Shown piece by piece: positions 14,084 through 57,790 of a stretch of DNA of 64,000 bases (the first letter of the stretch is position 1; each line of letters starts with the position of its first letter). The notes under the pieces are model-generated. The model saw only the letters and a program-made list of their open reading frames with translations. It had not been told where the DNA came from and made no database searches. Source of the DNA: an uncultured virus (IMG/VR IMGVR_UViG_3300042384_001469) (lineage: Duplodnaviria > Heunggongvirae > Uroviricota > Caudoviricetes); IMG/VR virus record IMGVR_UViG_3300042384_001469, one strand, 5' to 3'. A program made the position numbers and the translations under genes.

Positions 14084-14097
14084 ATCTTATAAATATA

Positions 14098-14436
14098 TCA
14101 ATCTTCATTAATTTTAACATTGACTTTTATAAATTTTTCTTGAGCCATTGCAACTTCAATATCTTTAAGTTTTATTTTAACTTTTGTATTTTTATTTTTA
14201 TTAACTCTTTTTTCAAACTCTATCTCATCAACTTCTAATCTGACAAAAAGTTTTATTAAAATTTCCTTTTCATCGTCTGTTAATTCTTTTATTCTTTCTT
14301 TAGTTTTTTTGTAATTGTCCCTACCGGCACTAACTACATCTAATATTTTTTCAATAATACACCCTTCCACCCATGTAAAAGGGGTATCAATCCACGCAAA
14401 AGGTGCGTCACTCCATTTATAACAAACAGTTGCCAT
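14098..14436 (-). CDS. Hypothetical protein
   Basis: 112-aa ORF; TATTTAT upstream. Confidence 0.65.
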   Translation of the reverse strand: MATVCYKWSDAPFAWIDTPFTWVEGCIIEKILDVVSAGRDNYKKTKERIKELTDDEKEILIKLFVRLEVDEIEFEKRVNKNKNTKVKIKLKDIEVAMAQEKFIKVNVKINED

Positions 14437-14438
14437 AC

Positions 14439-14450
14439 TATTTATAAATA
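14439..14450. promoter_or_regulatory. Palindromic TATTTATAAATA, candidate bidirectional late promoter
   Basis: Gives TATTTAT on both strands between the divergent genes at 14436 (-) and 14475 (+). Confidence 0.5.
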
Positions 14451-14474
14451 ACTTAAAATTTGTAAAATTAAAGC

Positions 14475-17400
14475 ATGGCCGATATTAAAAACCAATTAAT
14501 TAAAGATTCTTATAATTACGTCTTACAATCTGACTTATCAACAGGTATTGTTTATCGTATCGGTGGAGCCATTCCTGTTAATCCAATCTTTTTATCGGGA
14601 CTTACTATAAATAGTGGATTTACGTATTCTAATGGAACTGAACAAAATGGTTATGTATTAACTTGTGATGCTTCAGGTAACGCCAATTGGGGTCCTGCTG
14701 GAGGAACAACAGGTGTATATCTTCCGTTAAGTGGTGGAACTGTATCGGGGGGGACTATATTCCAAAGTGGACTAACTGCTAACACAATTTCAGCAACAAC
14801 TTATCAGAATTTACCAACCGATGTTTATGTTACAGGAGGAACTTATACAAATGGAGAAATTACCTTTTTAAATAATACAGGAGGAACTTTTACGGTTACT
14901 GGACTTCCAATAGGAGGACCTGGAGGTCAAGTATATTATTTAAATTTATCAAACTCACAACCACCATATAGAGAATTTAGTCCAAGTGGAACAACAAATT
15001 CACAACAAATAACGGCTGTTACAATTAACAATGGAGTAACTAGTACGATTACCTCATTTCAAACACCAACTGGATATCCAAACGCATCTCTAATACCTGC
15101 AGGATATTGGAGCTTTTATCTTCATTCTTTCAAACAAAATAGTAACGCATCTTTTGATATATTCTGTGAGGTTTATTTAAGAACCACAGGGGGAACCGAA
15201 ACTCTACTTGTTACAACTGACCCGGCTCCAGTAACTACAAATTCCCCAAATCCATCAATGCAATTAACGGACGGATATTATTCGGGTTCATCAATAAATA
15301 CAACTGACAGAATTGTTGTAAAAGTAAGAGCAACGAATACTAGTAATCAATCACATTCAATAACTTTAGTCACTGAAGGTACCCAACATTATTCTTATGG
15401 AATAACACCATTTTCAGACAATTCGGCTTTGACTTGTGGTACATTAAGCGGATGTTCAATAATTCAAACAATTCAAACCGATATAAGTAATAAATTTGAT
15501 AAAAGTGGTGGAACTATTAATGGCAACTTAACCGTAACAGGAAATACTTCACTACAAGGATTAACTGCAACTACAATATCTGCAACCACATATCAAAACT
15601 TACCATCATCATTTCAATCTGTAAGAATTAGTGGTACCACACAATTCTCCGCAAATACTGGAACTTTTATAAATTTTAGTGGTGTTAATATATCAATTAC
15701 TTCAGCGTCAACAAATACATTAGTTTTTAGTGGGTCACCTCAGTTCACGGTGCCAGGTTCAAACAATCAGGTTTTAACATCTGATGGTAGTGGAGGCGCA
15801 GTTGCAGAATCATTGTTAACATTTGATGGTGCCGCAACCTCACCAACGTTGAATGTGAATGGTGTTCGTGTTGGTAGAGGTAATTTTAACGTATGTACTA
15901 ATATATCAATTGGTGGTGTTGCATTTAGTGGAGTGGCTCCTGGAGGGAATAACATTGCGATAGGACAACAGTCACAAACAAGTAATCTTGGACAAGGTAA
16001 TACATCAATTGGGTATAAGTCTTTAAGAAGTAAAACCATAGGTGATTTTAACATATCCTTAGGTCATAAATCTATGTCCAGTTCTCAATCAGTATGTTAT
16101 GGCCTGAATTACAATATATCCATTGGATATAAAAATATGTACCAAGCATGTGGGAATAATAACATATCTATGGGGAGTTCTTCTCTTTATAATATCTCTC
16201 AATGTATGTTTGGAAATATTGCAATTGGTGATAAATCATTACGTGAGGGGACTAGTATTTCTCGTAATATTGGGATAGGTACTAATTCTTTAAAAAAGTT
16301 GTCTACAGGTTATTGTAATATCGGTATAGGTGATTATGCGTTATATGGTTACGGATGTTCAATTAGTTTTTCTCGTAACATTGCATTGGGTTTCAAAAGT
16401 CAAAAAAATAAATGTGCAGGTGATGATAATATTTCCTTAGGTGTTACATCATTGTATTGTAATCCCAACGGTTCCAAGAATATTGCAATTGGGACTAATG
16501 CTATAAGACAAAACTCGAATTGTTTAACAAGTGGTATTGGTAATATTGGAATCGGATATGATTCTTTAAGAAACAATACTTCGGCTTCAGACCATAACAT
16601 TGCAATTGGTCAGGCGGCATTGTATTACAATACAGGAGCACAAGGACCAAAACCTGATTTTAACGTTGCAATTGGTAGGTGTTCAATGTTAAATAATAAT
16701 AATGGTTGTGAAAATATTGCAATTGGTAGAAGAGCTTTGATGAGTAATTCAGGATGTTATTCCAACCAAGGTTGTGGTAATGTTGCGTTAGGTAGAGGTA
16801 CAATGGCCAACAATTTTACGGGTAATTATAATATTGCAATAGGTAGAAGTTCTTTATATAGTAATACTACAGGTGTACACAACATTGCGTTAGGTAGAAA
16901 TTCAGGTGGAGAAATTACAACAGGTAGTAACAATATTTCATTAGGATATAACTCATTATACTATACAAGTACAGGTAGAGACAACATTGCAATTGGTAAT
17001 CAGGCGTTATGTTATAATACTGATGGGGTTAGAAATATTGCGATAGGTTATCAATCACTTCGTAAATCGGACAAAAAATCTGATAATATAGCAATTGGGC
17101 CCAATACATTACATGATTGGGTTGGTGGTGAAAGTAGACTATCAAATATTGCAATCGGATTGAATTCCCTATATGGTGGTACAACAAACTCAGGAGCGCC
17201 GTACTACACAACAAATTACTCAAAATTTTCAGGTAATATTGCGATAGGGCAAGAATCTCAATCTTGCAACTATTATGGAAATTTAAATGTGAGTTTAGGA
17301 CATAATACTCTCACTTTTAATGTATATGGCAGTGAAAATGTTGCAATAGGTAGTGGTGCTCTATATAGGGCTAATGGAGGTAATAATAACATTGCAATAG

Positions 17401-17858
17401 GGACTAAATCAATTGGTTATACTGGTCCAGTACCTGTTGGAAATCACAACATTGCTATTGGATATTATAGTTTTGGAAGAACGTCTTGCGGTGGTAGTTA
17501 TAATATTCTTTTAGGTCTTAAATCAATGTATGGAAGTAATGGTGGTTCTCATAATATTGGATTGGGCTATTGTGTTTTATTTTCTAACTATGGACAATCA
17601 AATATTGCACTTGGATATAAATCATTATATCAAAACACCTCAGGGTACCGAAATATTGCAATTGGTAATAATACAAATTCAGGAAATTATAATTATTCAA
17701 TTATTCTTGGTGGTTATGCTACGGCAACTGGAAATAATCAATTTGTTGTAGGTAGTTCCTCAATTCCTATTGGTACTATAACAACTGAGTCGTGCAGTTC
17801 CTCAAGGACTTGGGAAATAAGAATTAACGGAAATTCTTACAAAGTTTTATTAGCTTAA
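14475..17858 (+). CDS. Tail fibre/adhesin with many NIAIG beta-helical (trimeric-autotransporter-head-like) repeats
   Basis: 1127 aa, G/S/T/N-rich; about 40 N(I/V)(A/S/G)(I/L)G repeats; YLPLSGGT and FDKSGGTINGNL fibre motifs. Confidence 0.8.
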   Translation: MADIKNQLIKDSYNYVLQSDLSTGIVYRIGGAIPVNPIFLSGLTINSGFTYSNGTEQNGYVLTCDASGNANWGPAGGTTGVYLPLSGGTVSGGTIFQSGLTANTISATTYQNLPTDVYVTGGTYTNGEITFLNNTGGTFTVTGLPIGGPGGQVYYLNLSNSQPPYREFSPSGTTNSQQITAVTINNGVTSTITSFQTPTGYPNASLIPAGYWSFYLHSFKQNSNASFDIFCEVYLRTTGGTETLLVTTDPAPVTTNSPNPSMQLTDGYYSGSSINTTDRIVVKVRATNTSNQSHSITLVTEGTQHYSYGITPFSDNSALTCGTLSGCSIIQTIQTDISNKFDKSGGTINGNLTVTGNTSLQGLTATTISATTYQNLPSSFQSVRISGTTQFSANTGTFINFSGVNISITSASTNTLVFSGSPQFTVPGSNNQVLTSDGSGGAVAESLLTFDGAATSPTLNVNGVRVGRGNFNVCTNISIGGVAFSGVAPGGNNIAIGQQSQTSNLGQGNTSIGYKSLRSKTIGDFNISLGHKSMSSSQSVCYGLNYNISIGYKNMYQACGNNNISMGSSSLYNISQCMFGNIAIGDKSLREGTSISRNIGIGTNSLKKLSTGYCNIGIGDYALYGYGCSISFSRNIALGFKSQKNKCAGDDNISLGVTSLYCNPNGSKNIAIGTNAIRQNSNCLTSGIGNIGIGYDSLRNNTSASDHNIAIGQAALYYNTGAQGPKPDFNVAIGRCSMLNNNNGCENIAIGRRALMSNSGCYSNQGCGNVALGRGTMANNFTGNYNIAIGRSSLYSNTTGVHNIALGRNSGGEITTGSNNISLGYNSLYYTSTGRDNIAIGNQALCYNTDGVRNIAIGYQSLRKSDKKSDNIAIGPNTLHDWVGGESRLSNIAIGLNSLYGGTTNSGAPYYTTNYSKFSGNIAIGQESQSCNYYGNLNVSLGHNTLTFNVYGSENVAIGSGALYRANGGNNNIAIGTKSIGYTGPVPVGNHNIAIGYYSFGRTSCGGSYNILLGLKSMYGSNGGSHNIGLGYCVLFSNYGQSNIALGYKSLYQNTSGYRNIAIGNNTNSGNYNYSIILGGYATATGNNQFVVGSSSIPIGTITTESCSSSRTWEIRINGNSYKVLLA

Positions 17859-17860
17859 CT

Positions 17861-17894
17861 TTGACATTTTTAGTTTTGTGGGTTAATATTAACC
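17861..17894 (+). promoter_or_regulatory. TTGACA-N17-TAATAT promoter overlapped by the palindrome GGTTAATATTAACC
   Basis: TTGACA 17861-17866, TAATAT 17884-17889, palindrome 17881-17894, ATG 17896. Confidence 0.65.
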
Positions 17895-17895
17895 T

Positions 17896-18711
17896 ATGAA
17901 GAAAATATTTTTTAACGCATCATTACCAAGAGCAGGGTCAACATTAATTCAAAACATATTAATGCAAAATCCTGAAATTTATTCAACACCAACTTCAGGA
18001 GTGATTGAGCTACTTTTACAAGCTAGAACCATATATACAACAGGTGACGCATTTAAAGCACAAAATCCTGATGAAATGAGAGAGGGATTAAAAAGTTTTT
18101 GTGAAAAAGGTTTAACGGGTTTTTTCGATAACATAACTGATAGACCCTATGTTATTGATAAGAGTAGAGCGTGGATAGGTAACTATCATTTCTTAAAGTG
18201 GTTTTACGGGACACCTAAAATTATTTGTATGGTTAGGGACCTAAGGGCAATTTTCTCTTCAATGGAAAAAAACTATAGAAAAAATTCACATAAAGACCCT
18301 CTATTAGTAAATGTCAATGAATTAAAAAATATGACAACAACATCAAGAGTTGACCATTTTTCAATATCTCCCCCAATTGGTCCATCATTAGAATGGTTAT
18401 TTGAGTCAATTCACCAAGGATATGACAAAGATATTCTTTTTGTTAGATTTGAAGACCTAACATCAAATCCTGATAAAGAGTTAAAACGGATTTACGATTA
18501 TTTGGAGATACCTTTTTATCAACACGACTTTAATAATATTGAGCAGTTAACTATTGAAAATGATGTCATACACGGAATTTTTGGTGACCACTCAATAAAA
18601 AATACATTATCTCAACCAAAAGAAGATTATAACGAAATATTAGGTGCTGATAATAGTAATAGATTATACGAACACTATAATTGGTTCTTCAATAAATTTA
18701 ATTATAAATAA
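17896..18711 (+). CDS. PAPS-dependent sulfotransferase (paralog 1)
   Basis: 5'-PSB loop SLPRAGSTL, DKSR, 3'-PB VRDLRAIFSS, RFEDL. Confidence 0.88.
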   Translation: MKKIFFNASLPRAGSTLIQNILMQNPEIYSTPTSGVIELLLQARTIYTTGDAFKAQNPDEMREGLKSFCEKGLTGFFDNITDRPYVIDKSRAWIGNYHFLKWFYGTPKIICMVRDLRAIFSSMEKNYRKNSHKDPLLVNVNELKNMTTTSRVDHFSISPPIGPSLEWLFESIHQGYDKDILFVRFEDLTSNPDKELKRIYDYLEIPFYQHDFNNIEQLTIENDVIHGIFGDHSIKNTLSQPKEDYNEILGADNSNRLYEHYNWFFNKFNYK

Positions 18712-18716
18712 GCTTT

Positions 18717-18974
18717 ATGGAAAACGATGAAATACCAAACCCAACTAAATCAATTAATTCAGCCTTTAATTCGGTGACACTAATAAATGGAATTATTGAT
18801 GGTTCTAAATTACCAACAGAAAAAATTGAAGTTAAAAAAACTACAGTCGAGAGAAATTACAAACATTTAGAAGTTATGAAAAGTAAAGATTGGTTTATGT
18901 CAGCATTAACTGAAACTCAATTAACGGAAATAAACGATACGATTCAATCAGGTAAAACTTATACACAACTATGA
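18717..18974 (+). CDS. Small phage protein of a type often found next to tail fibre genes
   Basis: SVTLIN...VERNYKHLEVM..KDW...I..GKTY pattern recalled from fibre-adjacent phage ORFs. Confidence 0.55.
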   Translation: MENDEIPNPTKSINSAFNSVTLINGIIDGSKLPTEKIEVKKTTVERNYKHLEVMKSKDWFMSALTETQLTEINDTIQSGKTYTQL

Positions 18975-19399
18975 TTTATTGGTTCACAGGTCAACCTGGC
19001 TCAGGAAAAACAACATTGGCGAATGCTTTAATTGAGAAGTGTTCAGATAATTGTATTAATGTTGATGGAGATGGTTTGAGGGAGTTATTTCAAAACTTTG
19101 ATTATTCACCTGAAGGTAGAATTAAAAATATCCAATCTGTTGTTGATTTGGCTCGTTTTTTAGACCACAAGGGATTTACAGTTGTAATTTCTGTTGTTGC
19201 TCCTTATAAAAGAATGAGGGACTCATTAAAAGAAACTAATGAAGTTTGTGAAATCTATGTTCACACAAGTGAAATCAGAGGTAGAGAACAAAACTTTGTT
19301 AAGGAGTATGAACAACCAACTGAAAACTTTATTGATATTGACACAACAAATAAAACTATAGACGAATGTCTTGATTTAATACCTTTTAATAAAAAATGA
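18971..19399 (+). CDS. cysC: Adenylyl-sulfate (APS) kinase
   Basis: WFTGQPGSGKTT, DGDGLR, DYSPEGRIKN, VVAPY..R, YEQP. Confidence 0.88.
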   Translation: MIYWFTGQPGSGKTTLANALIEKCSDNCINVDGDGLRELFQNFDYSPEGRIKNIQSVVDLARFLDHKGFTVVISVVAPYKRMRDSLKETNEVCEIYVHTSEIRGREQNFVKEYEQPTENFIDIDTTNKTIDECLDLIPFNKK

Positions 19400-19794
19400 G
19401 TAACTGGGATAAAAAAGTTCACGTTCAGTCATCTTTGAAACCAAAAGATGGACAATTTGCAATGTTTGTCGGTAGATGGCAACCACTACATAAAGGACAC
19501 CAAGAGTTATTTAAACAAGCGATGGATGAAGGTAAGAATGTATTGATTTGTATCAGAGACATTGAACCTGATGAAAAAAATCCATTCACCGCTCAAGAAG
19601 TTAAGAGTAATATTGAGTCACACTATTCTGAATTGAGTGATAGAGTTAAAGTGATGGTAATACCTGATATATGTTCAATAGAATTTGGTAGAGGTGTTGG
19701 GTATGATATTATTGAAAGAATTCCCCCTCAAGAAATACACGATATTTCTGCAACTAAAATAAGAGAACAAATGAAATTGGAAGGTAAACTATGA
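19396..19794 (+). CDS. HxGH nucleotidyltransferase (cytidyltransferase-like), candidate minimal ATP sulfurylase
   Basis: GRWQPLHKGH, NPF, GRGVGY, ISATKIR; overlaps cysC. Confidence 0.75.
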   Translation: MSNWDKKVHVQSSLKPKDGQFAMFVGRWQPLHKGHQELFKQAMDEGKNVLICIRDIEPDEKNPFTAQEVKSNIESHYSELSDRVKVMVIPDICSIEFGRGVGYDIIERIPPQEIHDISATKIREQMKLEGKL

Positions 19795-20234
19795 AAAAAA
19801 TTAAAACATTTCAAATAAGATTTAACACTCACTCAACTAATGAATGTGATAGATGGAGATTGATTGAGAATGGTTCTGAAATTTTAGTTTCTGATATTGT
19901 TGTTGATGGTCACACTTATACTACTAAAGACTGGATACCTGAATTAAACGAATATAAATGGCATATCAGTTGTGAGGGTCACTGTGAGATTAAAAACACT
20001 GTAGCATATATAACAACAGTTAAACAAGAATCGGTATTAACCAGACATATTTTAAAAACAATATCTTACAGAATTTTAGGTACTTTAATTACCGTAGGAG
20101 TTGCGTACTCATTGGGGGCATCAATTGAGTTATCATCGTTATTAGGTGTGGGAGAATTGTTACTTAAACCAATTGTTTATTTCTTCCACGAAAGAGTATG
20201 GTATAAATTTATAAGAATTGGTTCTAAAAATTAA
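19791..20234 (+). CDS. DUF2061 membrane protein with an extra N-terminal domain
   Basis: RHILKTISYRILGT...KPIVYFFHERVW. Confidence 0.75.
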   Translation: MKKIKTFQIRFNTHSTNECDRWRLIENGSEILVSDIVVDGHTYTTKDWIPELNEYKWHISCEGHCEIKNTVAYITTVKQESVLTRHILKTISYRILGTLITVGVAYSLGASIELSSLLGVGELLLKPIVYFFHERVWYKFIRIGSKN

Positions 20235-20235
20235 T

Positions 20236-21114
20236 ATGGAAAAATATATTGTTTGGCACATACAGGGAGGATTGGGTAAAAACATTGCCGCCACGTCTCT
20301 ATTAACATCATTAAAAGAGAAATACGAAGACAGAAAAATTGTAGTAGTCGCCTCATACCCTGAAGTATTCTTAAACCATTCTTCAGTTTATAGAGTATAC
20401 AAATTAGGTACCACTCAATATTTTTATGATGATTATATTAAAGATAAAGACACAATAATCTTTCGACAAGAACCATATTATCAAACAAATCATATACTTA
20501 AAAAATCACATCTAATTGAAAATTGGTGTGACTTACTCGGGATTGAGTATACCAATCAAACACCAAGTATTAGTTTAAATATTTCTCAAAAACGTTCATT
20601 GTCTAAATGGCAAAGAGAAAAACCAATATTACTCATTCAAACAAATGGGGGCGCGTTTAATTCAAATCAATCTTATTCATGGACCAGAGATATCCCATTT
20701 GATGTGTCATCATCAATTGCTAATAAATTTAGTGAAACACACCATATAATTCAAATTTGTAAAAAATCATCAAGACAACTTCCAAATGCCGAAGTTATTG
20801 ATTATGAATTGTCCGCAGTTGATTTATGTTTAATCATTTTATCATCAGACAAAAGGGTGTTAATTGACTCATGTTTACAACATGCTGCGGCAGCTCTAAA
20901 TCTTAAATCTAATGTTATATGGGTAGGAACATCACCAAATAATTTTGGATATAGTATACATAATAATATATCACCAAAGTTACCAACTGATACAGTTAAG
21001 TTAATTGACTCATATCTTTTTGACTATTCATTTGAAGGTCCAAATCATGAATGTCCTTATATGTCTATTGACGAAATGTTTGATATTAATAAATTGATTA
21101 GTTTGGTAAATTAA
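20236..21114 (+). CDS. GT-B fold glycosyltransferase, GT9-like (paralog 1)
   Basis: GGLGKNIAAT, IDSCLQHAAAALN..VIWVGTSP..FGY. Confidence 0.72.
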   Translation: MEKYIVWHIQGGLGKNIAATSLLTSLKEKYEDRKIVVVASYPEVFLNHSSVYRVYKLGTTQYFYDDYIKDKDTIIFRQEPYYQTNHILKKSHLIENWCDLLGIEYTNQTPSISLNISQKRSLSKWQREKPILLIQTNGGAFNSNQSYSWTRDIPFDVSSSIANKFSETHHIIQICKKSSRQLPNAEVIDYELSAVDLCLIILSSDKRVLIDSCLQHAAAALNLKSNVIWVGTSPNNFGYSIHNNISPKLPTDTVKLIDSYLFDYSFEGPNHECPYMSIDEMFDINKLISLVN

Positions 21115-21148
21115 TTTTTTTTATTATATTTGTAAAAAATATAATCAA

Positions 21149-21544
21149 ATGAAAAACTTTATCTTATCAATTCTTTTCTTTCTTTTTTCTTTACCCTATT
21201 TCTCTCAAGACATTGAGTACGCGAGAGCCCGAACATTTAATATTGGTTACCGTGACTTTAGTACAAATGAAATTGTATGGAACGGAACAATAAATGATTG
21301 TGACATTCTAATTAAACTTACGGATTCCAAAGTTACTATTTTTAGTAAATCTCAACAAGATTATTATGTTGTTGGTAAACTTGCAGAACAAGATAATGTT
21401 GCCCAATACCGAATGCAAGATTCTAGTGGGAATAGTTGTAACTTCTATATGGGACCTTCTGAAATTACAGGAGTGTTATTTATGATAATAGAATATAACG
21501 ATTACGCTTGGATGTACTTAGTGGTCCCCGAAGCTAAGAATTAA
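21149..21544 (+). CDS. Secreted/periplasmic protein with a Sec signal peptide
   Basis: MKNFILSILFFLFSLPYFS|Q (Gln after cleavage is typical of Bacteroidota); TATATTTG at 21125-21132. Confidence 0.7.
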   Translation: MKNFILSILFFLFSLPYFSQDIEYARARTFNIGYRDFSTNEIVWNGTINDCDILIKLTDSKVTIFSKSQQDYYVVGKLAEQDNVAQYRMQDSSGNSCNFYMGPSEITGVLFMIIEYNDYAWMYLVVPEAKN

Positions 21545-30778: not shown

Positions 30779-30785
30779 GTTTAAT

Positions 30786-49746: not shown

Positions 49747-50571
49747 CTACATATTTTTAGGGTACTTAAAAATCTCGTTATACCACCCATAATTATTATA
49801 AATCCAATCACAAATATCTGAACCTAAAATTTTTTGAGCATCCGATGGTAATAACTCTAAAGTCTTTTTTATCTTATGGTCCCCAAAAATACCATACACT
49901 TCATCATCTTCTTTTGTTATTTGTTCAATGTTTTCAAAATCATGTTCAAAATAAGGTATTTCAAAATATTCATAAATTTTTCTCATGATTAAATCGGGAT
50001 ACAAACATAAATCCTCATACTTAACAAACATCATATTTTCATTAATACCTTGTCTGAAAATTTCTTGTAGTCTTTCAATCGCCATACCAACAGGTTGTGA
50101 GTTTGCCCATATGTCTATTCTTTTAGGTGTTGATGTTCCTTTCAAATCCGAATGATTTACAATCCCAAAATCTTTGTGCTGATTTTTTCTAAAGTTTTTT
50201 TCCATAGAGGTATAGATATCTCTAAGGTCTCTCACCATACAAACAACTTTTGGTTTATCAACAATTTGTTGTAAAAATCCATAATGGACACCCCATCCTC
50301 TACTTTTATCAACCACATATTTTTTATCAGTAATACTTTCATAAAAACCAGTTAACCCCTCTTTACAAAAAGATAAAAATGCGTTTTTCATAAGTTCAGG
50401 GTCCTGAGCTTTGAATTCAGGTGAATTACTATAGTTTGCTCTAGCCGCGTACACTAACTCTAAAACACCACTTGTTGGTGTTGCGTATATGTCAGGGTTT
50501 TGAGCTAAAATGTTTTGTAGTAGAGTACTACCTGCTCGTGGTAGTGAACTCTGAAAAAATAATCTTTCCAT
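49747..50571 (-). CDS. PAPS-dependent sulfotransferase (paralog 2)
   Basis: SSLPRAGSTL, DKSRGW, VRDLRDIYTSMEK, KYEDL. Confidence 0.88.
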   Translation of the reverse strand: MERLFFQSSLPRAGSTLLQNILAQNPDIYATPTSGVLELVYAARANYSNSPEFKAQDPELMKNAFLSFCKEGLTGFYESITDKKYVVDKSRGWGVHYGFLQQIVDKPKVVCMVRDLRDIYTSMEKNFRKNQHKDFGIVNHSDLKGTSTPKRIDIWANSQPVGMAIERLQEIFRQGINENMMFVKYEDLCLYPDLIMRKIYEYFEIPYFEHDFENIEQITKEDDEVYGIFGDHKIKKTLELLPSDAQKILGSDICDWIYNNYGWYNEIFKYPKNM

Positions 50572-50573
50572 TT

Positions 50574-50960
50574 TTAATATATTTTTTTTACTGATTCCCA
50601 ATATTCTTTTTTTCCATATGATGTACAAATTTCTTCACCTGGCTCAATATCTTTAACCGCAATAAAATAATACATTCCATTATCTGAATCACATGTCCAT
50701 GTTGCATTATTATCATCACTATGATTGTAAATACACCCATACCCAAGAGGTATTGCGTACTTTATTGGAGATGCCCCACAAGGATATGAGAAACGATATT
50801 TTAGTAATATATCATCGTTTGACCCTAAATCTGTTTTGAAAAAAATTGAATAACAGGTTTCAATTATTTCATCTTTTAATATTTTTTCAATCGCGAAAAC
50901 CCCAAATCCGTGAATTGGGGACGATTTCACTTCAATTTTATTTGGTATCGGGATGTTCAT
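50574..50960 (-). CDS. SET-domain protein-lysine methyltransferase
   Basis: SPIHGFGVFA, YNHSDDNN, DIEPGEEICTSYG. Confidence 0.88.
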   Translation of the reverse strand: MNIPIPNKIEVKSSPIHGFGVFAIEKILKDEIIETCYSIFFKTDLGSNDDILLKYRFSYPCGASPIKYAIPLGYGCIYNHSDDNNATWTCDSDNGMYYFIAVKDIEPGEEICTSYGKKEYWESVKKIY

Positions 50961-51828
50961 TGTTACTTAAAGAATTTAATATGTTCTCAATGTCAAACAT
51001 TTCAAACTCATCATTATATGGGAATTCCAAAGGTTCTCCCATTATGTTAAACTTGTTTAAATATGACATTTTTAATTCTGGTTTTTTTGTGAATTGGTTT
51101 GAAACAATATTTTTATTTGTTTCATATCCAAATACTTTTGGTGAGTTAACAATCCACAAAACTGTGGATTCTAATTTTAGAGCTCCCGCAACATGTTGAC
51201 CAAAACTATCCATAAAAAATCTTTTATTACTTATCGCAATTAAAGTTGCAACTGACCTAAAAGTATCAGTGACAGGGATTGTATTAGCGAAAGATGGTTG
51301 GTCTTCTCTTTTCAGGTGAAAAATAGTGTAACCATATTTAAATTTTTCAATCACACTTTCAACAATATGGAATGGAATGTCACGAGCCCAAGAGTATTTC
51401 AAATTTTGTTCAACCCCTCCATTAGTTTGAATAACCATGATTGGTTTATCAGTTGTGTATTTTCTTGAAAAGAAATTAATCTCTCTCTCAGTTAGATATA
51501 TGTTTGGTTGTTCACCATTATATTCTAAATCAAATAGTTTACACCAAGTTTCAATTAAATGTTCTGTTTTATTAATATGGTTAGTTTCAAGGTATGGGTC
51601 ATGAGCCAAAAGTTTGAATTCTTTATCTTCAATATAGTCAGAATAAAAATAAGAATGTTCACCAAAATTAAACGCTCGGTCAACATGTGGATTGTTTAAG
51701 AAAACATCAGGATATCCTGAGACAACAATAAGTTTAGAATTTGGGTATTTTTTTTTAATTACTTCGGTAACTGCGGTTGCCAAAATACATTTACCTATAC
51801 CACCATTAATTTGGAAAATTATATTCAT
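50938..51828 (-). CDS. GT-B fold glycosyltransferase, GT9-like (paralog 2)
   Basis: GGIGKCILAT, MDSFGQHVAGAL..VLWIVNSPKVFGY. Confidence 0.72.
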   Translation of the reverse strand: MNIIFQINGGIGKCILATAVTEVIKKKYPNSKLIVVSGYPDVFLNNPHVDRAFNFGEHSYFYSDYIEDKEFKLLAHDPYLETNHINKTEHLIETWCKLFDLEYNGEQPNIYLTEREINFFSRKYTTDKPIMVIQTNGGVEQNLKYSWARDIPFHIVESVIEKFKYGYTIFHLKREDQPSFANTIPVTDTFRSVATLIAISNKRFFMDSFGQHVAGALKLESTVLWIVNSPKVFGYETNKNIVSNQFTKKPELKMSYLNKFNIMGEPLEFPYNDEFEMFDIENILNSLSNNEHPDTK

Positions 51829-51852
51829 AATCAAAGCTTTGATTAAAATATA
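51828..51852 (-). promoter_or_regulatory. 18-bp palindrome TAATCAAAGCTTTGATTA between a TATATT element and the ATG
   Basis: Palindrome 51828-51845; TATATT at 51852-51847. Confidence 0.5.
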
Positions 51853-51865
51853 AAATATGTATTAG

Positions 51866-54800
51866 TTATTGTGAAGATGAATTTTTAAGTAATTCAATTT
51901 CTTTTTCAAGTTTTTCAACTCTTAATATTGTTTCTTGTAATGATTTAACTGTTAGAGATAAAATACCATCATAATCTAGTCCGTATGTTCCGTCTTCTTT
52001 TTCACCATCGCCAAGCACTAATTCAGGGTATGCAATAAGTACATCTTGTGCTACAAAACCGTGTCTTGTTGTACCACTATAATCTTTATATTCAAATTTA
52101 ACAGGTTTTAGATTTAAAATATGTGGTGTGATTTCATCATTAATATACTGAACATTTATTTTTCTTCTTAAATCGGATGTTCCACCTCCTGGTGTACTTA
52201 ATACTCCGGCATCCGTAAGTGAGAGTATAATTGTACCATAAGTGCTGTTAACGACTTCAAGTCCTCCTGTACCATTCACTCTAAAAGTTTTATTTGGGTT
52301 TGTTGCACCTCCTGAGTTATTGGTAACTCTAATAAAATCTATGTAACTAGCGCCTCCGACTGTTCCACTTCCACAAAATGTGGTTAACGCTCCTACGGAA
52401 CTACCGCTTATAGTTATACTTCCTTTTGTTCCTGAAATAGTACCAACAGAACCGCTAAAACTTGGAGAGTTAACTGAAGTGGTTCCACAAAAATTATTAG
52501 AATAGAATGTACATGCCACAGAAGCGGTTAATCCACATCCAGCAGCGAATGAAAAATTAGACGACACAGTATTTCCACTACCTCCAACAATACCACTAAA
52601 TTGACCTGTAACCGAATTACACCCTCCTCCACCAACAAATGAATTTAAATTAGATATCCTATTACAGAATCCACCATTAATTACTGAACAATCACTACCT
52701 GAAGTAACCGCATTACAAATACCACCACCAATAAATGAGTATGAAGTATGACCAGAATTATTAGCACCTCCTAAAACAGATGTTGAGAATAAACAAGAAA
52801 TATTATTTAAACCTCCTCCTAATACTGAATAACACCCATTTGATATCCCTTGATACCCCCCTCCTAAAAACGCAAAGTCACAACACGCAGAATTTTTAAA
52901 CCCTCCACCAATTGTCGTACTTTGTCCTGAAATAACATTACATTGTCCTCCACCAATAAAAGAATAAGAACAACAACTTCTATTACATTGTCCTCCACCA
53001 ATAAATGACCAAGCACCTATTGTACAATTTAATTCACCTCCAACTACAGTAACATAATTACCTGTAAGTCCTGAGTTTCTAAGACCACCACCTATAAATC
53101 CTGCAACACTTGAATTAGTATTCAAACATCCCCCGCCAATAGTTGAATATTTACTACTTGAGGTGTTACCACATCCTCCTAAAACCGCACTATAACCTCC
53201 AGAAACAGTATTTGAAATCCCACCTAAAATAGATGAATAAGAACCAGTATTAATAGTATTCCCTCTTCCACCAACAATTGAAGAATAGCTTGATGATACT
53301 GTGTTACAAGCTCCCGCACCAATAAATGATGTCCCACCACTATTAGAGTTACAACTTCCAGCACCTATAAATGAATTACCTCCTGAACCAATATTACAAC
53401 ATCCTCCAACAACAGTAATTAAAAATGTAGAAACGTTAGCACTTATAATATTACAACACCCACCACCAATAAATGAAGATGGTCTTGAAACTATATTATT
53501 TCTATTACCACTTACAATAGTAGAATAACAACCACTATTAGTATTACCACTTCCAACAAGTATTGAGCCGTAATATGCTAAATTACAAATACAGTTACCA
53601 ATTCCATTAACAACAGTTGAGTAACACGCATTTAATGTATTACCACTACCATTACCCACAAATGACCAATCAGCATTGTTATAATTACAATAACCGTTAA
53701 CAACCGTTGACCCGCTTCCTGTCGTATTATTTTGAAATCCATTTCCAATAAATGAAAAAGTTCCTGATGATTGAGTTACAGCACCTGATGGTGAAAATAC
53801 TAAATTGTTCCAATCAGGTGTACCTCCACAAGTTCCGTTACCAAAACCACTACCAATAAATGACCAAACACCTGTCAAATTTTTAGCTGCCCCACATATT
53901 CTGTTTGATGTCCCTCCACCAATAAACGAATGAGATGAAAAACAAATAATATTACTATTTCCATTTATTATTGATGTATAACCCGACGTTGTAACATTAT
54001 TATGACCTCCCATAACATGACTACCATTACCAACAAAACCGTAAGTCACATTATTAATCTGATGTCCAAATCCATTAATAACAGTGGTCGCGTAACTACC
54101 ACAAACAAAACTATTAGTACCTCCAATAATTTGATTATAAGAACATCCTTTATCATTACCATCAATAATTTGAGAGCAATTGGTGTTCATTTGTAATGAA
54201 AAAGTATTACGCCAAATACAAGATGATGTTGAATTACCGATTAAATTTGAGTCCCCACAAATCCATCCCCCACATTTACCAACGTTTCCATTATTACTTA
54301 TTATTGTTGAGTGTGAACCACATATAATACTTCCCCCATAGGTAAATCCTTTACCGGCATTAATAATTGCGGAATAATTACCACTTATAGTATTAGAGTT
54401 ACCATTACCTATATAAGAGCTACACCCCGAAACAATATTGTTATAACCATTAGAAATGAATGACCCTGTTGTGTTTGCTGATAATGTATTACCACTACCA
54501 TTACCTATAAATGAGTATGTTGACGTATTAATTGTATTACCACTACCATTAATAATACTTGAAAAACAAGAGGTTTTACCACATATGTTATTCAAACATC
54601 CATTAGTGATGGTGTTAAAAGAAGCTCCTTGTGATAAATTACATATACCATTAATTACACTACCATATCTTGATGAGACAGTATTACCAATACCGTTACC
54701 AATTAATGATGAAACAGACGATGAGGTATTTCCGGTACCATTAATAATTGAACCATAGATATTACTAGCGGTATTGTTCCTACCACCCCCTATAAAACTA

Positions 54801-57790
54801 TATGAACCACTTGTCGTGTTTTTATACCCTCCACTAATAGTTGATGAAATAGAACATGCGGAATTACAACATCCATTTAGTATTGTTGTAAACGTTCCAA
54901 TGGAACTTACTAAATTATTAAATCCGTTTAAAATATTTGATGTATCACCTAAAACCCTATTTAAACATCCATTACCAATAATTGTATACGCAAATTTTGA
55001 ACTTGCTCCTGATAGAATGTTTGAACATCCCGCTAAAATTACACTATTACTTGTATTACCCGTATTTGAGGAACCATTTAATATTGTAACATTCGCAAAT
55101 GAAGGAGTGATAATATTTGACTGTCCGTTAAGTATTGATGACTGATTTCCACAAGAACAGTTTAAAGTACCACCACCAATAAACGAAGTACAACCTGATA
55201 CAATATTTCGGTATCCCCCTGATATGGTTGAGTAAATTCCTGACGAGGTATTAAATCTACCACCAACTACTGAGCTATAAGAACCACAAGAAAAGTTTCT
55301 ATACCCTCCTGATATGGTTGAATATATTCCTGATGAAGTATTACATTTTCCGCCAAGAACAGATGAACAAGCTCCATAAGCACAGTTATTAATACCCCCA
55401 CCAATTGTTGAGGTTAGTCCTGTTGCTGAGTTTGAACTTCCTCCTCCAATAAATGAACAAGTTCCAACAGCATTATTACCAGTACCTCCAACAACCGCAC
55501 TATGAGTTCCACAAGAATTGTTTTTATAACCACCTAAAATTGATGAACATCCTCCTACCGCACAGTTAAAATAACCACCACTAATAGTACTAAAGTCACC
55601 ATACGAAATATTTTTATAACCACCACCAATAGTTCCTGAGCTACCTGTGACACAGTTTACTTGTCCACCTGCGATAACACTATTAACAGATGTTCCGGTA
55701 TTTAATTGTCCCCCTCCAATAAATGAAGAAGGTCCGTTTGAATAGTTTTTATACCCCCCACTTACGGTCGCACACCCTCCATTAGCCCAATTACACTTAC
55801 CACCCCCAATTATGGATGAGTTACCTGAAGCACAATTTATTAAACCTCCTAATACAGAAGAGTAACAACCACTTGAGGTATTTTTATACCCACCACCTAC
55901 TATTGAATAATCGCAAGTTGCAGTGTTACTATTTCCTCCACCTATTGTCGACCAAAAACAATTTGCAGTGTTAACACTCCCTCCACCTATTGTCGACCCA
56001 TTTCCATTTGTAGTGTTACCATTTCCTCCACCTATGGTTGATACCGGCCCAATTGACTCATTATCTTCACCTCCACCTATTGTCGACCCATTTCCTGTTG
56101 CGCAATTTGTATGCCCCCCTCCAATTGTTGCGTAATATTGAGAACTAATACTATTTACATACCCTCCATTGATGGTATTGAAACATCCATAGATACCTAC
56201 GTTATTAAGATTAATAATTGGAGTACTATATACATTTGACCCAGTATTCACTGATAAATCCAAACAAGTATACCCCCCACTATATGATGAATTAGTAATA
56301 TCACCTTTAATTAAATTACCATCATAATTATTAAAAAATTGGACAGTGTCACCATTAGGGTATAACGCTGTAACATCCCCACTAAGATATACTCTATTAT
56401 AACCAGAATTCGTACAATATAGATTTGAATACGTTATACCCTTACCAATAATATTAGAGACTCCACCATTAATGTTACCAGCATAAGATTTAACAATATT
56501 ACCTAATCCTCCTAAAATTGAGGAAGCCTGTGATTCAACACTATTATAGTTACCCCCTAAAATTGAGGAGCACACACCTTTACCAGTAACTATATTACAT
56601 TTACCACCACCTACGGTTGAGTAATAAGAACTTGCGGTGTTACCTTGTCCTCCACCTACGGTTGAGTAATAAGAACTTGCGGTGTTACCTTGTCCTCCAC
56701 CTACAGTTGAGTTATTACCACTTGCGGTGTTTTGATATCCCCCACTTACGGTTGAGTATTTACTACTTGAGGTGTTTTGATATCCCCCACTTACGGTTGA
56801 GTTATAACTACTTGCGGTATTACCAACTCCACCACCTACGGTTGAGTTGTAACCACTTGCAGTATTACCAACTCCACCACCTACGGTTGAGTATTTACTA
56901 CTTGAGTTGTTTTTATATCCACCACCAACAGTTGAGTATTTACTACTTGAGGTGTTACAATATCCCCCACTTACGGTTGAGTTATAGGAACTTGATGTAT
57001 TACAACGTCCACCACCTACGGTTGAATAAAATCCACTTGATGTATGAAAACCTCCTCCTCCGATTGTTGAAAAATAATTACTTGAGGTGTTACCTTGTCC
57101 TCCACCAACAAATGAATAATTACCTGAAGCGGTATTACCTGAACCCGCAAGAGCACCTCCAAAATCACCCGCAGCCGTATTATTAACCCCACATCTTATT
57201 GTGGAATTAATTCCTGTACCTGTAATATATAAAGTACTTGCGGATGAGGTACTTCCAGTTGAACCGTATTTTTTCCAAATAGCGGTAGCGTGTGTTGCGC
57301 CTCCAACACCTTCAATAGTCGATGCCGTCCAAGCGTTAATGAAGTTTTGACTTGCAACAGTCGTATTATTAATTGTGGTTCCAAAATCATAAAATGTAAT
57401 TGCAGTAGTTGCAGTTACCGCAGACCATAATGATTCGTAATTATCAATTCTGAATTGGTACACTTGGTCGTCTTCATAGACGTAAGCCAACATACCCAAC
57501 CTTTTTCTTCCCGAAGATATATTATCAGAATTAAGTGTTAGTACATCAGGTGAAAATACCGCACCAGTCCCCTTTGTAAATTGTATTGGTATGGTATTAC
57601 CACTATACTCAATTGGTCCAAATGTTGCAAATGGTATTGTATATACTAAATCAGTAAGATTAAATACCTCCATGTACCCACCAACTCCAAGTACTGAAAA
57701 ATTTGTTCCAAATGTTTCGGACCTTTCAACAGATTGTACTCCATTTAATTGTTCTGAACTTATTGGGTTTTTATATGGGAATGTAGACAT
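51866..57790 (-). CDS. Giant Cys/Gly/Ser-rich tail fibre with 14-aa beta-helix repeats and a C-terminal peptidase S74 intramolecular chaperone
   Basis: 1974 aa; S(T/F)(V/I)GGGxxN repeats; SDLRRK..LKPVKF..GFVAQDV..PELV..LDYDGI..KSLQE. Confidence 0.85.
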   Translation of the reverse strand: MSTFPYKNPISSEQLNGVQSVERSETFGTNFSVLGVGGYMEVFNLTDLVYTIPFATFGPIEYSGNTIPIQFTKGTGAVFSPDVLTLNSDNISSGRKRLGMLAYVYEDDQVYQFRIDNYESLWSAVTATTAITFYDFGTTINNTTVASQNFINAWTASTIEGVGGATHATAIWKKYGSTGSTSSASTLYITGTGINSTIRCGVNNTAAGDFGGALAGSGNTASGNYSFVGGGQGNTSSNYFSTIGGGGFHTSSGFYSTVGGGRCNTSSSYNSTVSGGYCNTSSSKYSTVGGGYKNNSSSKYSTVGGGVGNTASGYNSTVGGGVGNTASSYNSTVSGGYQNTSSSKYSTVSGGYQNTASGNNSTVGGGQGNTASSYYSTVGGGQGNTASSYYSTVGGGKCNIVTGKGVCSSILGGNYNSVESQASSILGGLGNIVKSYAGNINGGVSNIIGKGITYSNLYCTNSGYNRVYLSGDVTALYPNGDTVQFFNNYDGNLIKGDITNSSYSGGYTCLDLSVNTGSNVYSTPIINLNNVGIYGCFNTINGGYVNSISSQYYATIGGGHTNCATGNGSTIGGGEDNESIGPVSTIGGGNGNTTNGNGSTIGGGSVNTANCFWSTIGGGNSNTATCDYSIVGGGYKNTSSGCYSSVLGGLINCASGNSSIIGGGKCNWANGGCATVSGGYKNYSNGPSSFIGGGQLNTGTSVNSVIAGGQVNCVTGSSGTIGGGYKNISYGDFSTISGGYFNCAVGGCSSILGGYKNNSCGTHSAVVGGTGNNAVGTCSFIGGGSSNSATGLTSTIGGGINNCAYGACSSVLGGKCNTSSGIYSTISGGYRNFSCGSYSSVVGGRFNTSSGIYSTISGGYRNIVSGCTSFIGGGTLNCSCGNQSSILNGQSNIITPSFANVTILNGSSNTGNTSNSVILAGCSNILSGASSKFAYTIIGNGCLNRVLGDTSNILNGFNNLVSSIGTFTTILNGCCNSACSISSTISGGYKNTTSGSYSFIGGGRNNTASNIYGSIINGTGNTSSSVSSLIGNGIGNTVSSRYGSVINGICNLSQGASFNTITNGCLNNICGKTSCFSSIINGSGNTINTSTYSFIGNGSGNTLSANTTGSFISNGYNNIVSGCSSYIGNGNSNTISGNYSAIINAGKGFTYGGSIICGSHSTIISNNGNVGKCGGWICGDSNLIGNSTSSCIWRNTFSLQMNTNCSQIIDGNDKGCSYNQIIGGTNSFVCGSYATTVINGFGHQINNVTYGFVGNGSHVMGGHNNVTTSGYTSIINGNSNIICFSSHSFIGGGTSNRICGAAKNLTGVWSFIGSGFGNGTCGGTPDWNNLVFSPSGAVTQSSGTFSFIGNGFQNNTTGSGSTVVNGYCNYNNADWSFVGNGSGNTLNACYSTVVNGIGNCICNLAYYGSILVGSGNTNSGCYSTIVSGNRNNIVSRPSSFIGGGCCNIISANVSTFLITVVGGCCNIGSGGNSFIGAGSCNSNSGGTSFIGAGACNTVSSSYSSIVGGRGNTINTGSYSSILGGISNTVSGGYSAVLGGCGNTSSSKYSTIGGGCLNTNSSVAGFIGGGLRNSGLTGNYVTVVGGELNCTIGAWSFIGGGQCNRSCCSYSFIGGGQCNVISGQSTTIGGGFKNSACCDFAFLGGGYQGISNGCYSVLGGGLNNISCLFSTSVLGGANNSGHTSYSFIGGGICNAVTSGSDCSVINGGFCNRISNLNSFVGGGGCNSVTGQFSGIVGGSGNTVSSNFSFAAGCGLTASVACTFYSNNFCGTTSVNSPSFSGSVGTISGTKGSITISGSSVGALTTFCGSGTVGGASYIDFIRVTNNSGGATNPNKTFRVNGTGGLEVVNSTYGTIILSLTDAGVLSTPGGGTSDLRRKINVQYINDEITPHILNLKPVKFEYKDYSGTTRHGFVAQDVLIAYPELVLGDGEKEDGTYGLDYDGILSLTVKSLQETILRVEKLEKEIELLKNSSSQ
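56590..57150 (-). repeat. 42-bp tandem coding repeats, some near-identical
   Basis: e.g. CCACCTACGGTTGAGTAATAAGAACTTGCGGTGTTACCTTGTCCT twice at about 56608-56696. Confidence 0.85.

Follow-up and report, generated by a model that had tools for sequence, protein, structure and literature searches.

A candidate fibre-linked sulfation and glycosylation cassette and its probable PAPS-supply module in an uncultured phage

The role of phage sulfotransferases was called unclear in a passage of a 2023 article (PMC10580990), and a locus in which such an enzyme directly follows a fibre gene and is accompanied by a kinase of adenosine 5'-phosphosulfate (APS) raises two questions, namely whether the phage makes its own sulfate donor, 3'-phosphoadenosine-5'-phosphosulfate (PAPS), and which molecule receives the sulfate. 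Here, we examine such a locus at positions 14475-21114 of the window, a stretch of 64,000 nucleotides (nt) from the uncultured virus record IMGVR_UViG_3300042384_001469 (Caudoviricetes). An earlier note, made from the sequence alone, had described it as a fibre-linked sulfation and glycosylation cassette with its own PAPS supply. Comparative genomics makes it very probable that three of its genes, encoding a short APS kinase, a small nucleotidyltransferase and a DUF2061 protein, form a PAPS-supply module. To the cassette as a whole being a fibre-linked post-translational modification module of a large aquatic phage, we assign a probability of about 0.5.

The cassette consists of seven plus-strand open reading frames (ORFs) almost without intergenic space. 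It opens with the gene of fibre 1 (1127 amino acids (aa), 14475..17858), the candidate acceptor, followed by sulfotransferase 1 of a PAPS-dependent family (ST1; 271 aa, 17896..18711), an 85-aa ORF (18717..18974), the short APS kinase (APSK; 142 aa, 18971..19399), an HxGH nucleotidyltransferase that is a candidate minimal ATP sulfurylase (NT; 132 aa, 19396..19794), the DUF2061 protein (147 aa, 19791..20234) and a GT9-like glycosyltransferase of GT-B fold (GT-B 1; 292 aa from its ATG, 20236..21114). The fibre and sulfotransferase genes are separated by 37 nt and the sulfotransferase gene and 85-aa ORF by 5 nt, and the next three junctions are 4-nt overlaps; the glycosyltransferase gene overlaps the DUF2061 ORF by 17 nt if translated from a TTG (20218..21114, 298 aa), or follows it after a 1-nt gap if translated from the ATG at 20236. 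These ORFs, with their order and their tight, partly overlapping packing, are as the earlier note had described them, and Pfam, NCBIfam and PHROG searches confirmed each family that it had named, except for the last ORF, which has no Pfam match. The comparison across relatives that it had proposed showed that the cassette order and the APSK-NT-DUF2061 module recur in divergent viral contigs, which indicates that the arrangement is not due to chance. The cassette is also present, 100% identical, in virus record G001.

The kinase carries the P-loop GQPGSGKT, a DGD motif and a shortened lid, and it matches the Pfam APS_kinase model with 68.0 bits (cut-off 21.1). When a 32-member profile of the family was compared with the PDB, the top 26 matches were all APS kinases (5e-21 to 6e-9), and the next matches shared the P-loop only. 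With TIGR00455 the protein scores 77.6 bits, under the equivalog cut-off of 138.7, over profile positions 20-124 of 184. Its lid is ∼18 residues shorter than that of the archaeal enzyme 8a8h, whose segment at profile positions 99-113 spans 32 residues.

The NT, which contains the motifs GRWQPLHKGH and ISATKIR, matches CTP_transf_like with 33.6 bits (cut-off 21), and its best NCBIfam match, NF002243, reaches 39 bits against a cut-off of 127. Its conservation is far above that of its neighbours (65-97% identity over 147 viral matches), with an invariant N-terminal GRWQPLH.GH, including H32 and H35, and an invariant C-terminal block IPDICS.EFGR.VGY; R27, R54 and R99 are likewise invariant. A structural model of the NT (predicted local distance difference test, pLDDT, 85.7) was aligned by VIA-align over ∼112 residues with nicotinamide mononucleotide (NMN) adenylyltransferase (NMNAT; Z 9.5), PPAT (Z 9.3) and NadM (Z 8.8). 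Among ATP sulfurylase domains, 1v47 gave Z 7.3 over 113 residues with a root-mean-square deviation of 4.2, and the others gave Z 5.3-5.9 (5.9 for both PAPSS1 and 2gks). The NT shares the fold of the ATP sulfurylase catalytic domain, with its HxxH motif; since this fold is common to the whole superfamily, the match shows no function. ATP sulfurylase is missing among the 50 Foldseek matches listed for the NT, which carries little weight since VIA-align finds Z 5.3-7.3. Taken together, the sequence and fold matches place the NT in the HxGH nucleotidyltransferase superfamily, nearest to the NMNATs and outside the Sat family. An assignment as a canonical ATP sulfurylase was rejected, the PF01747 cut-off not being reached and both sequence and fold being nearer to an NMNAT of NadM type. 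Homologues, described as 'cytidyltransferase-like', are very abundant (at least 7,534 clusters at E <= 1e-5), and proteins in which kinase and NT are fused occur in phrog_10255, Salvo gp32 and DLP_6 gp227. The latter two (NC_042345.1 15167-15913 and KU682439.2 129043-129774) belong to cultured phages and are annotated only as 'kinase' or hypothetical.

The function that we propose for the NT comes from gene context, above all in bacteria. A DUF2061 profile scan of one genome per species gave 80 loci, mostly from Bacteroidota, 79 of which contain a DUF2061 ORF (L122-L201). In 68 of these 79 loci, an APS kinase gene is no more than 1.2 kb away, and CysD, CysN and CysQ are found nearby in 53, 51 and 46 of them, respectively. 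The order CysQ(Inositol_P)-DUF2061-CysC-CysD(PAPS_reduct)-CysN(GTP_EFTU) was confirmed with Pfam in isolates of Flavobacteriaceae (L140, L146, L154, L163 and L199), and the Bacteroidota operon is often situated inside polysaccharide loci or beside aryl- or sulfotransferases. Consistently, a passage of a preprint on a Mesorhizobium nod locus mentions DUF2061 with nodH, nodP and nodQ (bioRxiv 10.1101/2022.04.26.489235); in an excerpt of one further paper, DUF2061 is listed only as an iron-regulated hypothetical protein. The NT was detected in 5/79 bacterial DUF2061 loci, none of which has CysD or CysN, and none of 58 such loci holds the NT together with CysD/N.

An NT-type locus, flanked by tyrS and transporter genes, is also found on a SAR86 contig (L192:6579-7580). 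We therefore looked at 81 genomes (G010-G094) from the order of one SAR86 genome, which share kinship. The NT is present in 36 of them, whereas CysD occurs in two, both of them NT-negative and with a CysN-CysC fusion. Only three of the 81 show CysD or Sat, and 35 of the 36 NT-positive genomes show neither, although genome completeness is unreported. A short APS kinase (136-154 aa) directly adjoins the NT in 26 genomes and is confined to NT-positive ones. Moreover, Sulfotransfer_3 proteins were found in 34 of the 36 NT-positive genomes vs 8 of the 45 NT-negative ones (Fisher p = 1e-12). In bacteria of this order, sulfotransferase, short APS kinase, DUF2061 and NT genes form a chromosomal operon; in several genomes the sulfotransferase gene abuts the module, for instance at G019:C1:80974-82681. 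The NT takes the place of CysDN beside DUF2061 and APS kinase, and the simplest reading of this is a non-orthologous replacement of sulfate adenylyltransferase. On the strength of this context, we moderately favour the view that the NT is a sulfate adenylyltransferase of a new type.

The third member of the module matches DUF2061 with 55.6 bits at residues 87-137 (cut-off 23.1), in a C-terminal membrane domain. Its N-terminal domain of ∼80 aa is in some loci a separate 77-aa ORF; fused DUF2061 proteins of >259 aa were not seen among 73 candidates, a negative result of little weight. To describe the module in viruses, 80 NT loci were fetched, of which 79 contain an NT ORF; near-duplicates and the window's own contig are included, so that these loci are not independent. 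An APS kinase lies at most 378 bp from the NT in 76/79 loci, and in the three others the NT is at most ∼520 bp from a contig end. The DUF2061 domain adjoins the NT in 62/79 loci, a sulfotransferase is encoded within 1.8 kb in 49/79 and a GT9-like gene lies nearby in 39/79. Sulfotransferase genes are present in L063, L064 and L100, as seen in a scan of all ORFs and confirmed by whole-record searches, and in the 33 NT loci at first scored without a sulfotransferase, no additional PAPS-binding loop was revealed by a regular-expression search. The sulfotransferases adjoining the module belong to different families: Sulfotransfer_3/1, Sulfotransfer_2 in L050-L053 and a divergent Sulfotransfer_3 in L074.

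The position of the module also varies. It follows fibre 1 and its sulfotransferase, as in the window; it follows a second fibre, glycosyltransferase, SET and sulfotransferase set (see later in the text) in L038-L041 and L043; or it lies between a DUF3310 gene and a DNA methylase gene in L048, L054-L056, L058, L069 and L083. Such shifts among the relatives of the window are what one would expect if the module provided a diffusible metabolite for enzymes whose genes lie elsewhere. In a separate clade of 15 loci, an APS kinase gene divergently adjoins a sulfotransferase gene without an NT, which is consistent with hosts that already make APS. Eight module-bearing records without an adjoining sulfotransferase gene were searched for one elsewhere, G005, G007 and G008 with two Pfam families only; G002 (99% complete, 297 kb), G003 and Stenotrophomonas phage DLP_6 each gave a match above the Pfam cut-off, and G007 gave one under it.

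An additional ORF of 113-123 aa lies between APSK and NT in ∼20 loci. Six of these were scanned with Pfam, and five are of HAD type (L007:12247-12588, L061:7626-7994, L087:7620-7991, L074:7642-7989 and L081:7646-7999), the one in L050 having no match. By analogy with CysQ, the HAD-type protein, which is absent from the window, may be a phosphatase of 3'-phosphoadenosine 5'-phosphate (PAP). As a side observation, two carbamoyltransferases of NodU/CmcH type and an FkbM methyltransferase flank APSK-HAD-NT in G002 (L087:8483-12773), which recalls Nod-factor-style tailoring.

Which molecule would receive the sulfate was approached through the transferases. ST1 matches Sulfotransfer_3 with 65.9 bits (cut-off 27) and Sulfotransfer_1 with 45.6 bits (cut-off 22). 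Residues P11, R12, G14, S15 and T16 are invariant in 15 members of the family and align with PRSGTTL of TPST1; we take this invariant N-terminal loop to be the phosphosulfate-binding loop. A 15-member profile compared with the PDB matched TPST1 (5.7e-14) and TPST2 (1.3e-10), covering residues 7-211, with polyketide sulfotransferase domains (1.5e-8) and carbohydrate sulfotransferases (∼3e-3) well behind. Judged by these profile matches, the closest solved relatives of the phage family are the protein-tyrosine sulfotransferases. In a single alignment, the TPST segment 'cgeetrvip' faces 'ystptsgvie' of ST1, without an acidic residue in register.

For the glycosyltransferase, an AlphaFold model of GT-B 1 was built from an 80-sequence alignment (pLDDT 96.6). 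Its Foldseek matches at ranks 1-20 are all GT9 enzymes (E 5e-11 to 2e-7, template-modelling (TM) score 0.53-0.66), led by the Veillonella GT9 protein 3tov (5e-11, TM 0.62) and then by WaaF 1psw, TibC 4rb4/4rap and WaaC; this bears out the label of a GT9-like GT-B enzyme given in the earlier note. Other GT-B families appear only from E 1.6e-4 with TM <= 0.40, and three chains of the photosynthetic NDH complex rank in between (E 9e-7 to 3e-5). At the level of sequence, the family profile matches WaaF 1psw in the PDB at E 0.006. GT-B 1 itself has no Pfam match and so does not reach the Glyco_transf_9 cut-off of 22 bits, while its relatives P0206 and P0227 score 22.9 and 23.3 bits. The ESM Atlas holds the shorter, ATG-start form of the protein, and in the neighbouring Atlas cluster PF01075 is assigned to 45% of the 51 members. 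The family comprises 2,793 of 3,412 candidate proteins, which reduce to 709 representatives at 50% identity, and six of the eight long members examined are fusions with GT25 or FkbM-methyltransferase domains, which mark the family as glycan-building.

The product of the first gene, fibre 1, has PHROG matches between 1e-56 and 3e-61, including phrog_6002 (virion structural, 3.2e-61) and phrog_4636 (tail spike, 1.5e-59). It has no Pfam match and no PDB sequence match at E <= 0.1. The protein is rich in Gly, Ser, Asn, Thr and Tyr, and a ∼17-residue repeat of NIAIG..SLY.N type, in which Asn, Gly, Ser and Tyr are abundant, recurs 30 times in residues 476-1076; a tandem-repeat search of its DNA returned a single trivial 15-nt array only.

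A second, paralogous cassette, overlooked in the earlier note, is located on the minus strand at 49747-57790. Fibre 2 (1974 aa, 51866..57790) has an endosialidase-chaperone domain at its C-terminus (Peptidase_S74, 33.3 bits), and a 15-residue Gly/Ser/Thr/Tyr repeat occurs in it at least 43 times. Downstream of it lie GT-B 2, a GT9-like glycosyltransferase of 298 aa (50938..51834) that is 40% identical to GT-B 1 as read from 20218 to 21114 (286 residues, E 8e-71), a SET-domain protein of 128 aa (50574..50960) that is a candidate protein-lysine methyltransferase (51.9 bits, Pfam cut-off 22.4), and ST2 (293 aa, 49747..50628), which is 51% identical to ST1 (E 1e-106) and above both cut-offs with Sulfotransfer_3 (66.6 bits) and Sulfotransfer_1 (45.4 bits). 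The SET gene is retained between the GT-B 2 and ST2 genes in L038-L041 and L043; a phage-encoded candidate protein-lysine methyltransferase adjoining a fibre gene is unusual. Within the 64-kb window, the APSK-NT-DUF2061 genes trail only one of the two fibre-linked sets.

Two paralogous pairs of sulfotransferase and glycosyltransferase genes are thus each situated directly downstream of a different fibre gene. The types of sulfotransferase and fibre agree in 21 of the 23 non-identical loci that could be typed for both, which inherited synteny may explain. A lack of linkage to fibre genes in relatives would, according to the earlier note, have spoken against a role at the fibre; an ORF of at least 800 aa lies within 5 kb in 20 of 30 related sulfotransferase loci, and in the other ten the fibre gene is in three pieces (L004 and L005) or the contig ends within a few kb. 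The neighbours of the sulfotransferase genes include collagen-repeat and Peptidase_S74 fibres, Laminin_G proteins and tail-fibre assembly chaperones. The SET enzyme of the second cassette implies a protein substrate, and TibC is among the GT9-fold relatives of the glycosyltransferase. These two fibre-tied paralogous enzyme sets, the SET enzyme and the resemblance of the sulfotransferase to TPSTs make a plausible case from sequence for fibres as acceptors, and the gene order leads us to put fibres being the acceptors of sulfate or glycan at even odds. A related observation was made in G002, where a collagen-repeat Peptidase_S74 fibre is encoded beside two 2OG-Fe(II) oxygenases, DUF6445, GT17 and a sulfotransferase (L120:9934-19749); this neighbourhood resembles a gene set for hydroxylating and glycosylating a phage fibre in the manner of collagen.

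Several observations weigh against a fibre-modification module with its own PAPS supply. The NT scores 17.0 bits with the Pfam ATP-sulfurylase model (PF01747) and its relatives in L074 and L081 score 22.4-22.7 (cut-off 24.3); its sequence is closest to NadM and archaeal NMNATs (9e-8 with a PDB profile, residues 22-80 only), and its fold is nearer to NMNAT (Z 9.5) than to ATP sulfurylase (Z 7.3). Within the SAR86 order, Sat is present in one of the 81 genomes (G015), alongside the NT, and, because the completeness of these genomes is unreported, the finding that 35 of the 36 NT-positive genomes have neither a CysD nor a Sat match is soft. Xylella phage Salvo has a fused kinase-NT protein and gave no match to three sulfotransferase Pfam families, nor was a sulfotransferase found in the partial records (12-62% complete) G004, searched with three families, and G005 and G008, searched with two. 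With regard to the acceptor, synteny that is kept among relatives provides non-independent observations. Other phage lineages carry the module in polysaccharide-type clusters with GT2, GT4, GT10, DegT, epimerases and carbamoyltransferases. The annotated sulfotransferase of DLP_6 sits among replication genes, that of cyanophage S-SKS1 adjoins no annotated fibre and that of S-SRM01 is found with a glycosyltransferase, an epimerase and RCC1-like proteins. Finally, most solved GT9 enzymes act on the core of lipopolysaccharide (LPS), which makes a host envelope glycan a possible acceptor.

The claim of an own PAPS supply is supported in so far as the module is conserved, stands beside three sulfotransferase families in phages and is linked to Cys operons and to the SAR86 operon, but the NT is no canonical ATP sulfurylase. 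In the mechanism that we propose, the NT would adenylylate sulfate to APS, and the short APSK, from its family assignment, would phosphorylate APS to PAPS. The first step of ATP sulfurylase is thermodynamically uphill and needs pulling by the kinase; the fused kinase-NT proteins would suit such a step because the kinase must pull the equilibrium. The DUF2061 membrane protein may be an accessory of the pathway, for which a role in sulfate entry or anchoring is a guess. The GT9-like enzyme would add a sugar and the TPST-like sulfotransferase would move sulfate from PAPS, the acceptor presumably being the repeat-rich product of the preceding fibre gene; either its polypeptide or a glycan on it would be modified. 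Fibre 2, with its own paralogous glycosyltransferase, sulfotransferase and SET methyltransferase, would draw on the same PAPS pool. A bolder version, which we regard as tentative at best, makes the NT the founding minimal ATP sulfurylase on an NMNAT scaffold and the three genes, a lid-less APS kinase among them, a PAPS synthase; the phage would sulfate its own fibres and glycosylate them with the GT9-like enzymes, which would make it the first sulfated phage virion. The same doubtful version would include SAR86 and thousands of aquatic phages using the three-gene route instead of CysDN or Sat.

Other explanations accept sulfation and place it elsewhere. The target of the enzymes could be a glycan of the host envelope (LPS core, O-antigen or capsule), altered in the course of infection. 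Their proximity to fibres would then reflect a habit of accessory-gene insertion, and the purpose could be receptor masking, a block to superinfection or progeny that does not stick to debris. The closest solved GT-B folds are mostly LPS heptosyltransferases (WaaC, WaaF) and the Veillonella GT9 protein, the PAPS module of other phage lineages lies in a polysaccharide-like setting of nucleotide-sugar enzymes and several glycosyltransferases, and bacterial DUF2061-CysC-CysDN operons also occur within polysaccharide loci. Seroconverting phages, moreover, keep O-antigen modification genes beside tailspike genes. We nevertheless find this explanation unlikely, given that two paralogous sulfotransferase and glycosyltransferase sets are tied to different fibres with the sulfotransferase type tracking the fibre type, that the second set includes a SET protein methyltransferase, and that the sulfotransferase is TPST-like and less like the carbohydrate sulfotransferases among solved structures; family searches of the window ORFs examined flagged no flippase, Wzx/Wzy or GtrA/B-type membrane genes. 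Alternatively, PAPS might be made as proposed and used on a virion protein other than the fibre, on a small molecule or in modifying nucleic acid. This would fit the place of the DLP_6 sulfotransferase among replication genes and of its kinase-NT fusion near ligase and helicase-loader genes, as well as the module between DUF3310 and DNA methylase in several relatives, and a 1455-aa Thr/Pro-rich protein of the window (38082-42449) is also a possible acceptor. However, in the lineage of the window the sulfotransferase gene is downstream of fibre genes in both copies, and in the close relatives examined it never moves from the fibre, so that we give this alternative a low probability.

Two further explanations dispute the PAPS pathway itself, and both appear highly improbable to us. 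According to one of them, the kinase, the HAD phosphatase of the relatives and the NT make a nucleotide-activated sugar, by a logic of ADP-heptose type, for the GT9-like transferase, and PAPS comes from the host. The 113-123-aa ORF between kinase and NT in ∼20 loci, of HAD type in 5/6 scanned, agrees with this, as do the GT9-like character of the GT-B enzyme, the fold that the NT shares with HldC (Z 5.4) and a weak PHROG match to a heptose kinase/adenylyltransferase (8.5e-4). The strong matches of the kinase profile, however, are only APS kinases (26/26 top PDB matches) and no sugar kinases, 40/79 viral loci have the module without a GT9-like gene, and the neighbours examined include no sedoheptulose-7-phosphate isomerase. 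On L192, the only SAR86 contig with annotated neighbours, no glycosyltransferase gene lies beside the module, and in several genomes of the SAR86 order it is a sulfotransferase gene that directly adjoins it; in general, the module goes with sulfotransferases and with DUF2061, a family partnered in bacteria by CysC, CysD, CysN and CysQ. According to the other, the NT is a true NMN adenylyltransferase that forms with a nucleoside or nucleotide kinase a NadR-like pair for salvage of nicotinamide adenine dinucleotide (NAD), in metabolism or counter-defence, and is merely situated beside a sulfotransferase. NadM, archaeal NMNAT and NadR are indeed the best sequence and fold matches of the NT, Atlas clusters are auto-named putative NMNAT, and NadM-Nudix proteins of T4-like coliphages match the NT weakly. 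Yet the NT is ∼35 residues shorter than solved archaeal NMNATs (132 vs 164-181 aa) and matches them in sequence over residues 22-80 only, nothing in the sequence matches corresponds to its invariant C-terminal block (IPDICSIEFGRGVGY), and it is far under the NCBIfam NMNAT cut-offs (39 vs 127 bits). Its presence in only 36/81 genomes of the SAR86 order indicates that it has no housekeeping role there, and it is found together with sulfotransferases (p = 1e-12). Furthermore, the kinase is APS-kinase-like, DUF2061 is tied to Cys operons and the loci examined contain no adjoining NadV or Nudix partner. A PAPS-supply module serving fibre-linked transferases is the reading that we retain.

Other genes of the cassette region and of the window complete the picture. 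The 85-aa ORF gave no match in Pfam, PHROG and NCBIfam scans; it has homologues in L004/L005, L065, L066, L070 and L101 and is retained between the sulfotransferase and APS kinase genes in some relatives. A 131-aa ORF with a hydrophobic N-terminus (21149..21544, +), whose membership of the cassette is uncertain, likewise gave no family match in Pfam, PHROG and NCBIfam scans; it follows DUF2061 in L042 and is missing from L004/L005. No DNA-level match to the cassette was found among 50,697 phage records. A scan of 13900-22000 for sigma-70 promoters and terminators did not exceed shuffled sequences (43 vs 46.7 promoters, 2 vs 2.9 terminators) and is uninformative on operon structure. PADLOC detected no defence-system family, except for a weak P-loop match of the kinase (mad8, 25.7 bits).

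The window also encodes a primase, an SbcC-like protein, a sigma factor, an amidase, methylases and large structural proteins. IMG/VR contigs carrying relatives reach 293,850 bp and the exact NT protein is found on contigs of up to 220,090 bp; the source is probably a large aquatic phage of >200 kb. Two large proteins of the structural region, at 45330-47303 (-) and 58904-61111 (-), contain SprB repeats, which we take to be a motif of Bacteroidota gliding adhesins and which hint at a Bacteroidota host. Such a host is likely, on the basis of the SprB repeats, Hc1 and the closest DUF2061 relatives only. The Hc1 histone-H1-like protein (24239-24418) is encoded on the minus strand, as are a full, three-domain DnaJ (21725-22654), a sigma-70-type factor (29978-30802) and adjoining glutaredoxin and thioredoxin (7639-8228). 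Of two DNA methyltransferases, at 1268-2125 (-) and 12730-13569 (-), one is an N6_N4_Mtase and one a D12-class, Dam-like enzyme; in relatives, the PAPS module is inserted beside the counterpart of the one at 1268-2125. The 1455-aa protein at 38082-42449 (+) contains 18% Thr and 10% Pro, with long linkers of PTKTPTKT type between globular segments, and these mucin-like stretches could be another target of glycosylation.

If the proposal is true, phage sulfotransferases gain a concrete and testable role, and receptor-binding fibres acquire a new chemical layer that could alter host range, adsorption and resistance to degradation. DUF2061 and the abundant 'cytidyltransferase-like' NT family would be assigned to a pathway, and an unrecognised route to PAPS would exist in SAR86 and in further streamlined marine bacteria in which neither CysD/N nor Sat is seen, which bears on the making of sulfated glycans and metabolites in the ocean. 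As a sulfurylase, the NT would probably be a previously unrecognised type of enzyme. Our searches of the open-access literature yielded no description of phage particles that carry sulfate, of a PAPS module in phages or of a link between DUF2061 and Cys genes, and a comparative review of jumbo phages (PMC7824862) makes no mention of sulfotransferase, sulfation, PAPS, APS kinase, heptosyltransferase or SET domain.

Compared with canonical PAPS synthesis (CysD/CysN or Sat with CysC and CysQ), the phage module similarly has an APS kinase beside a putative sulfate activator and near sulfotransferases, but a 132-aa NadM-like NT stands in place of CysD, CysN and Sat. It has DUF2061 in common with the CysQ-DUF2061-CysC-CysD-CysN operon of Bacteroidota, whereas its kinase is ∼50 residues shorter than their CysC (∼196-200 aa) and has a reduced lid, and, unlike the CysDN route, it has no GTPase to drive the unfavourable step. 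Bifunctional PAPS synthases (Sat-CysC, human PAPSS) join the two folds that lie side by side here and that some phages likewise fuse (phrog_10255, Salvo gp32), and the sulfurylase domain of human PAPSS1 can be aligned structurally with the NT (Z 5.9). However, the phage order is kinase then NT, and the NT lacks a PUA-like domain and stays under the Pfam ATP-sulfurylase threshold. With NadM and archaeal NMNATs, its best sequence and fold matches, the NT shares the N-terminal Rossmann core with HxGH; it differs from them in its shorter length, in another invariant C-terminal block and in its APS kinase, DUF2061 and sulfotransferase neighbours.

The transferases can be compared in the same way. 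TibC glycosylates repeat-rich autotransporter adhesins, and these resemble the repeat-rich, beta-solenoid-like fibres that are the acceptor candidates here. TibC is named a heptosyltransferase in its PDB entry (4rb4/4rap), and the phage enzyme has the GT-B fold of the GT9 heptosyltransferases, TibC included, whose structures are its top matches, but it is smaller (292 vs 320-390 aa) and without a Pfam GT9 match. The PAPS-binding loop (PRxGS/TTL) and the VRD segment of TPST1/2 align with the phage sulfotransferase, whereas identity is low; TPST substrates are acidic, while the fibres are poor in acidic residues (D+E ∼3-4%). Giant viruses encode the glycosylation of their own virions. For mycobacteriophages, virus-encoded glycosylation of the virion is described in a passage of PMC12582341, citing Freeman et al. 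2023. The cassettes of the window resemble these systems in that virus-encoded glycosyltransferases are found beside structural genes; they differ in that fibres, in place of capsid or tail tube, are the proposed target and in that a sulfotransferase, a SET enzyme and sulfate-activation genes are added to the glycosyltransferases.

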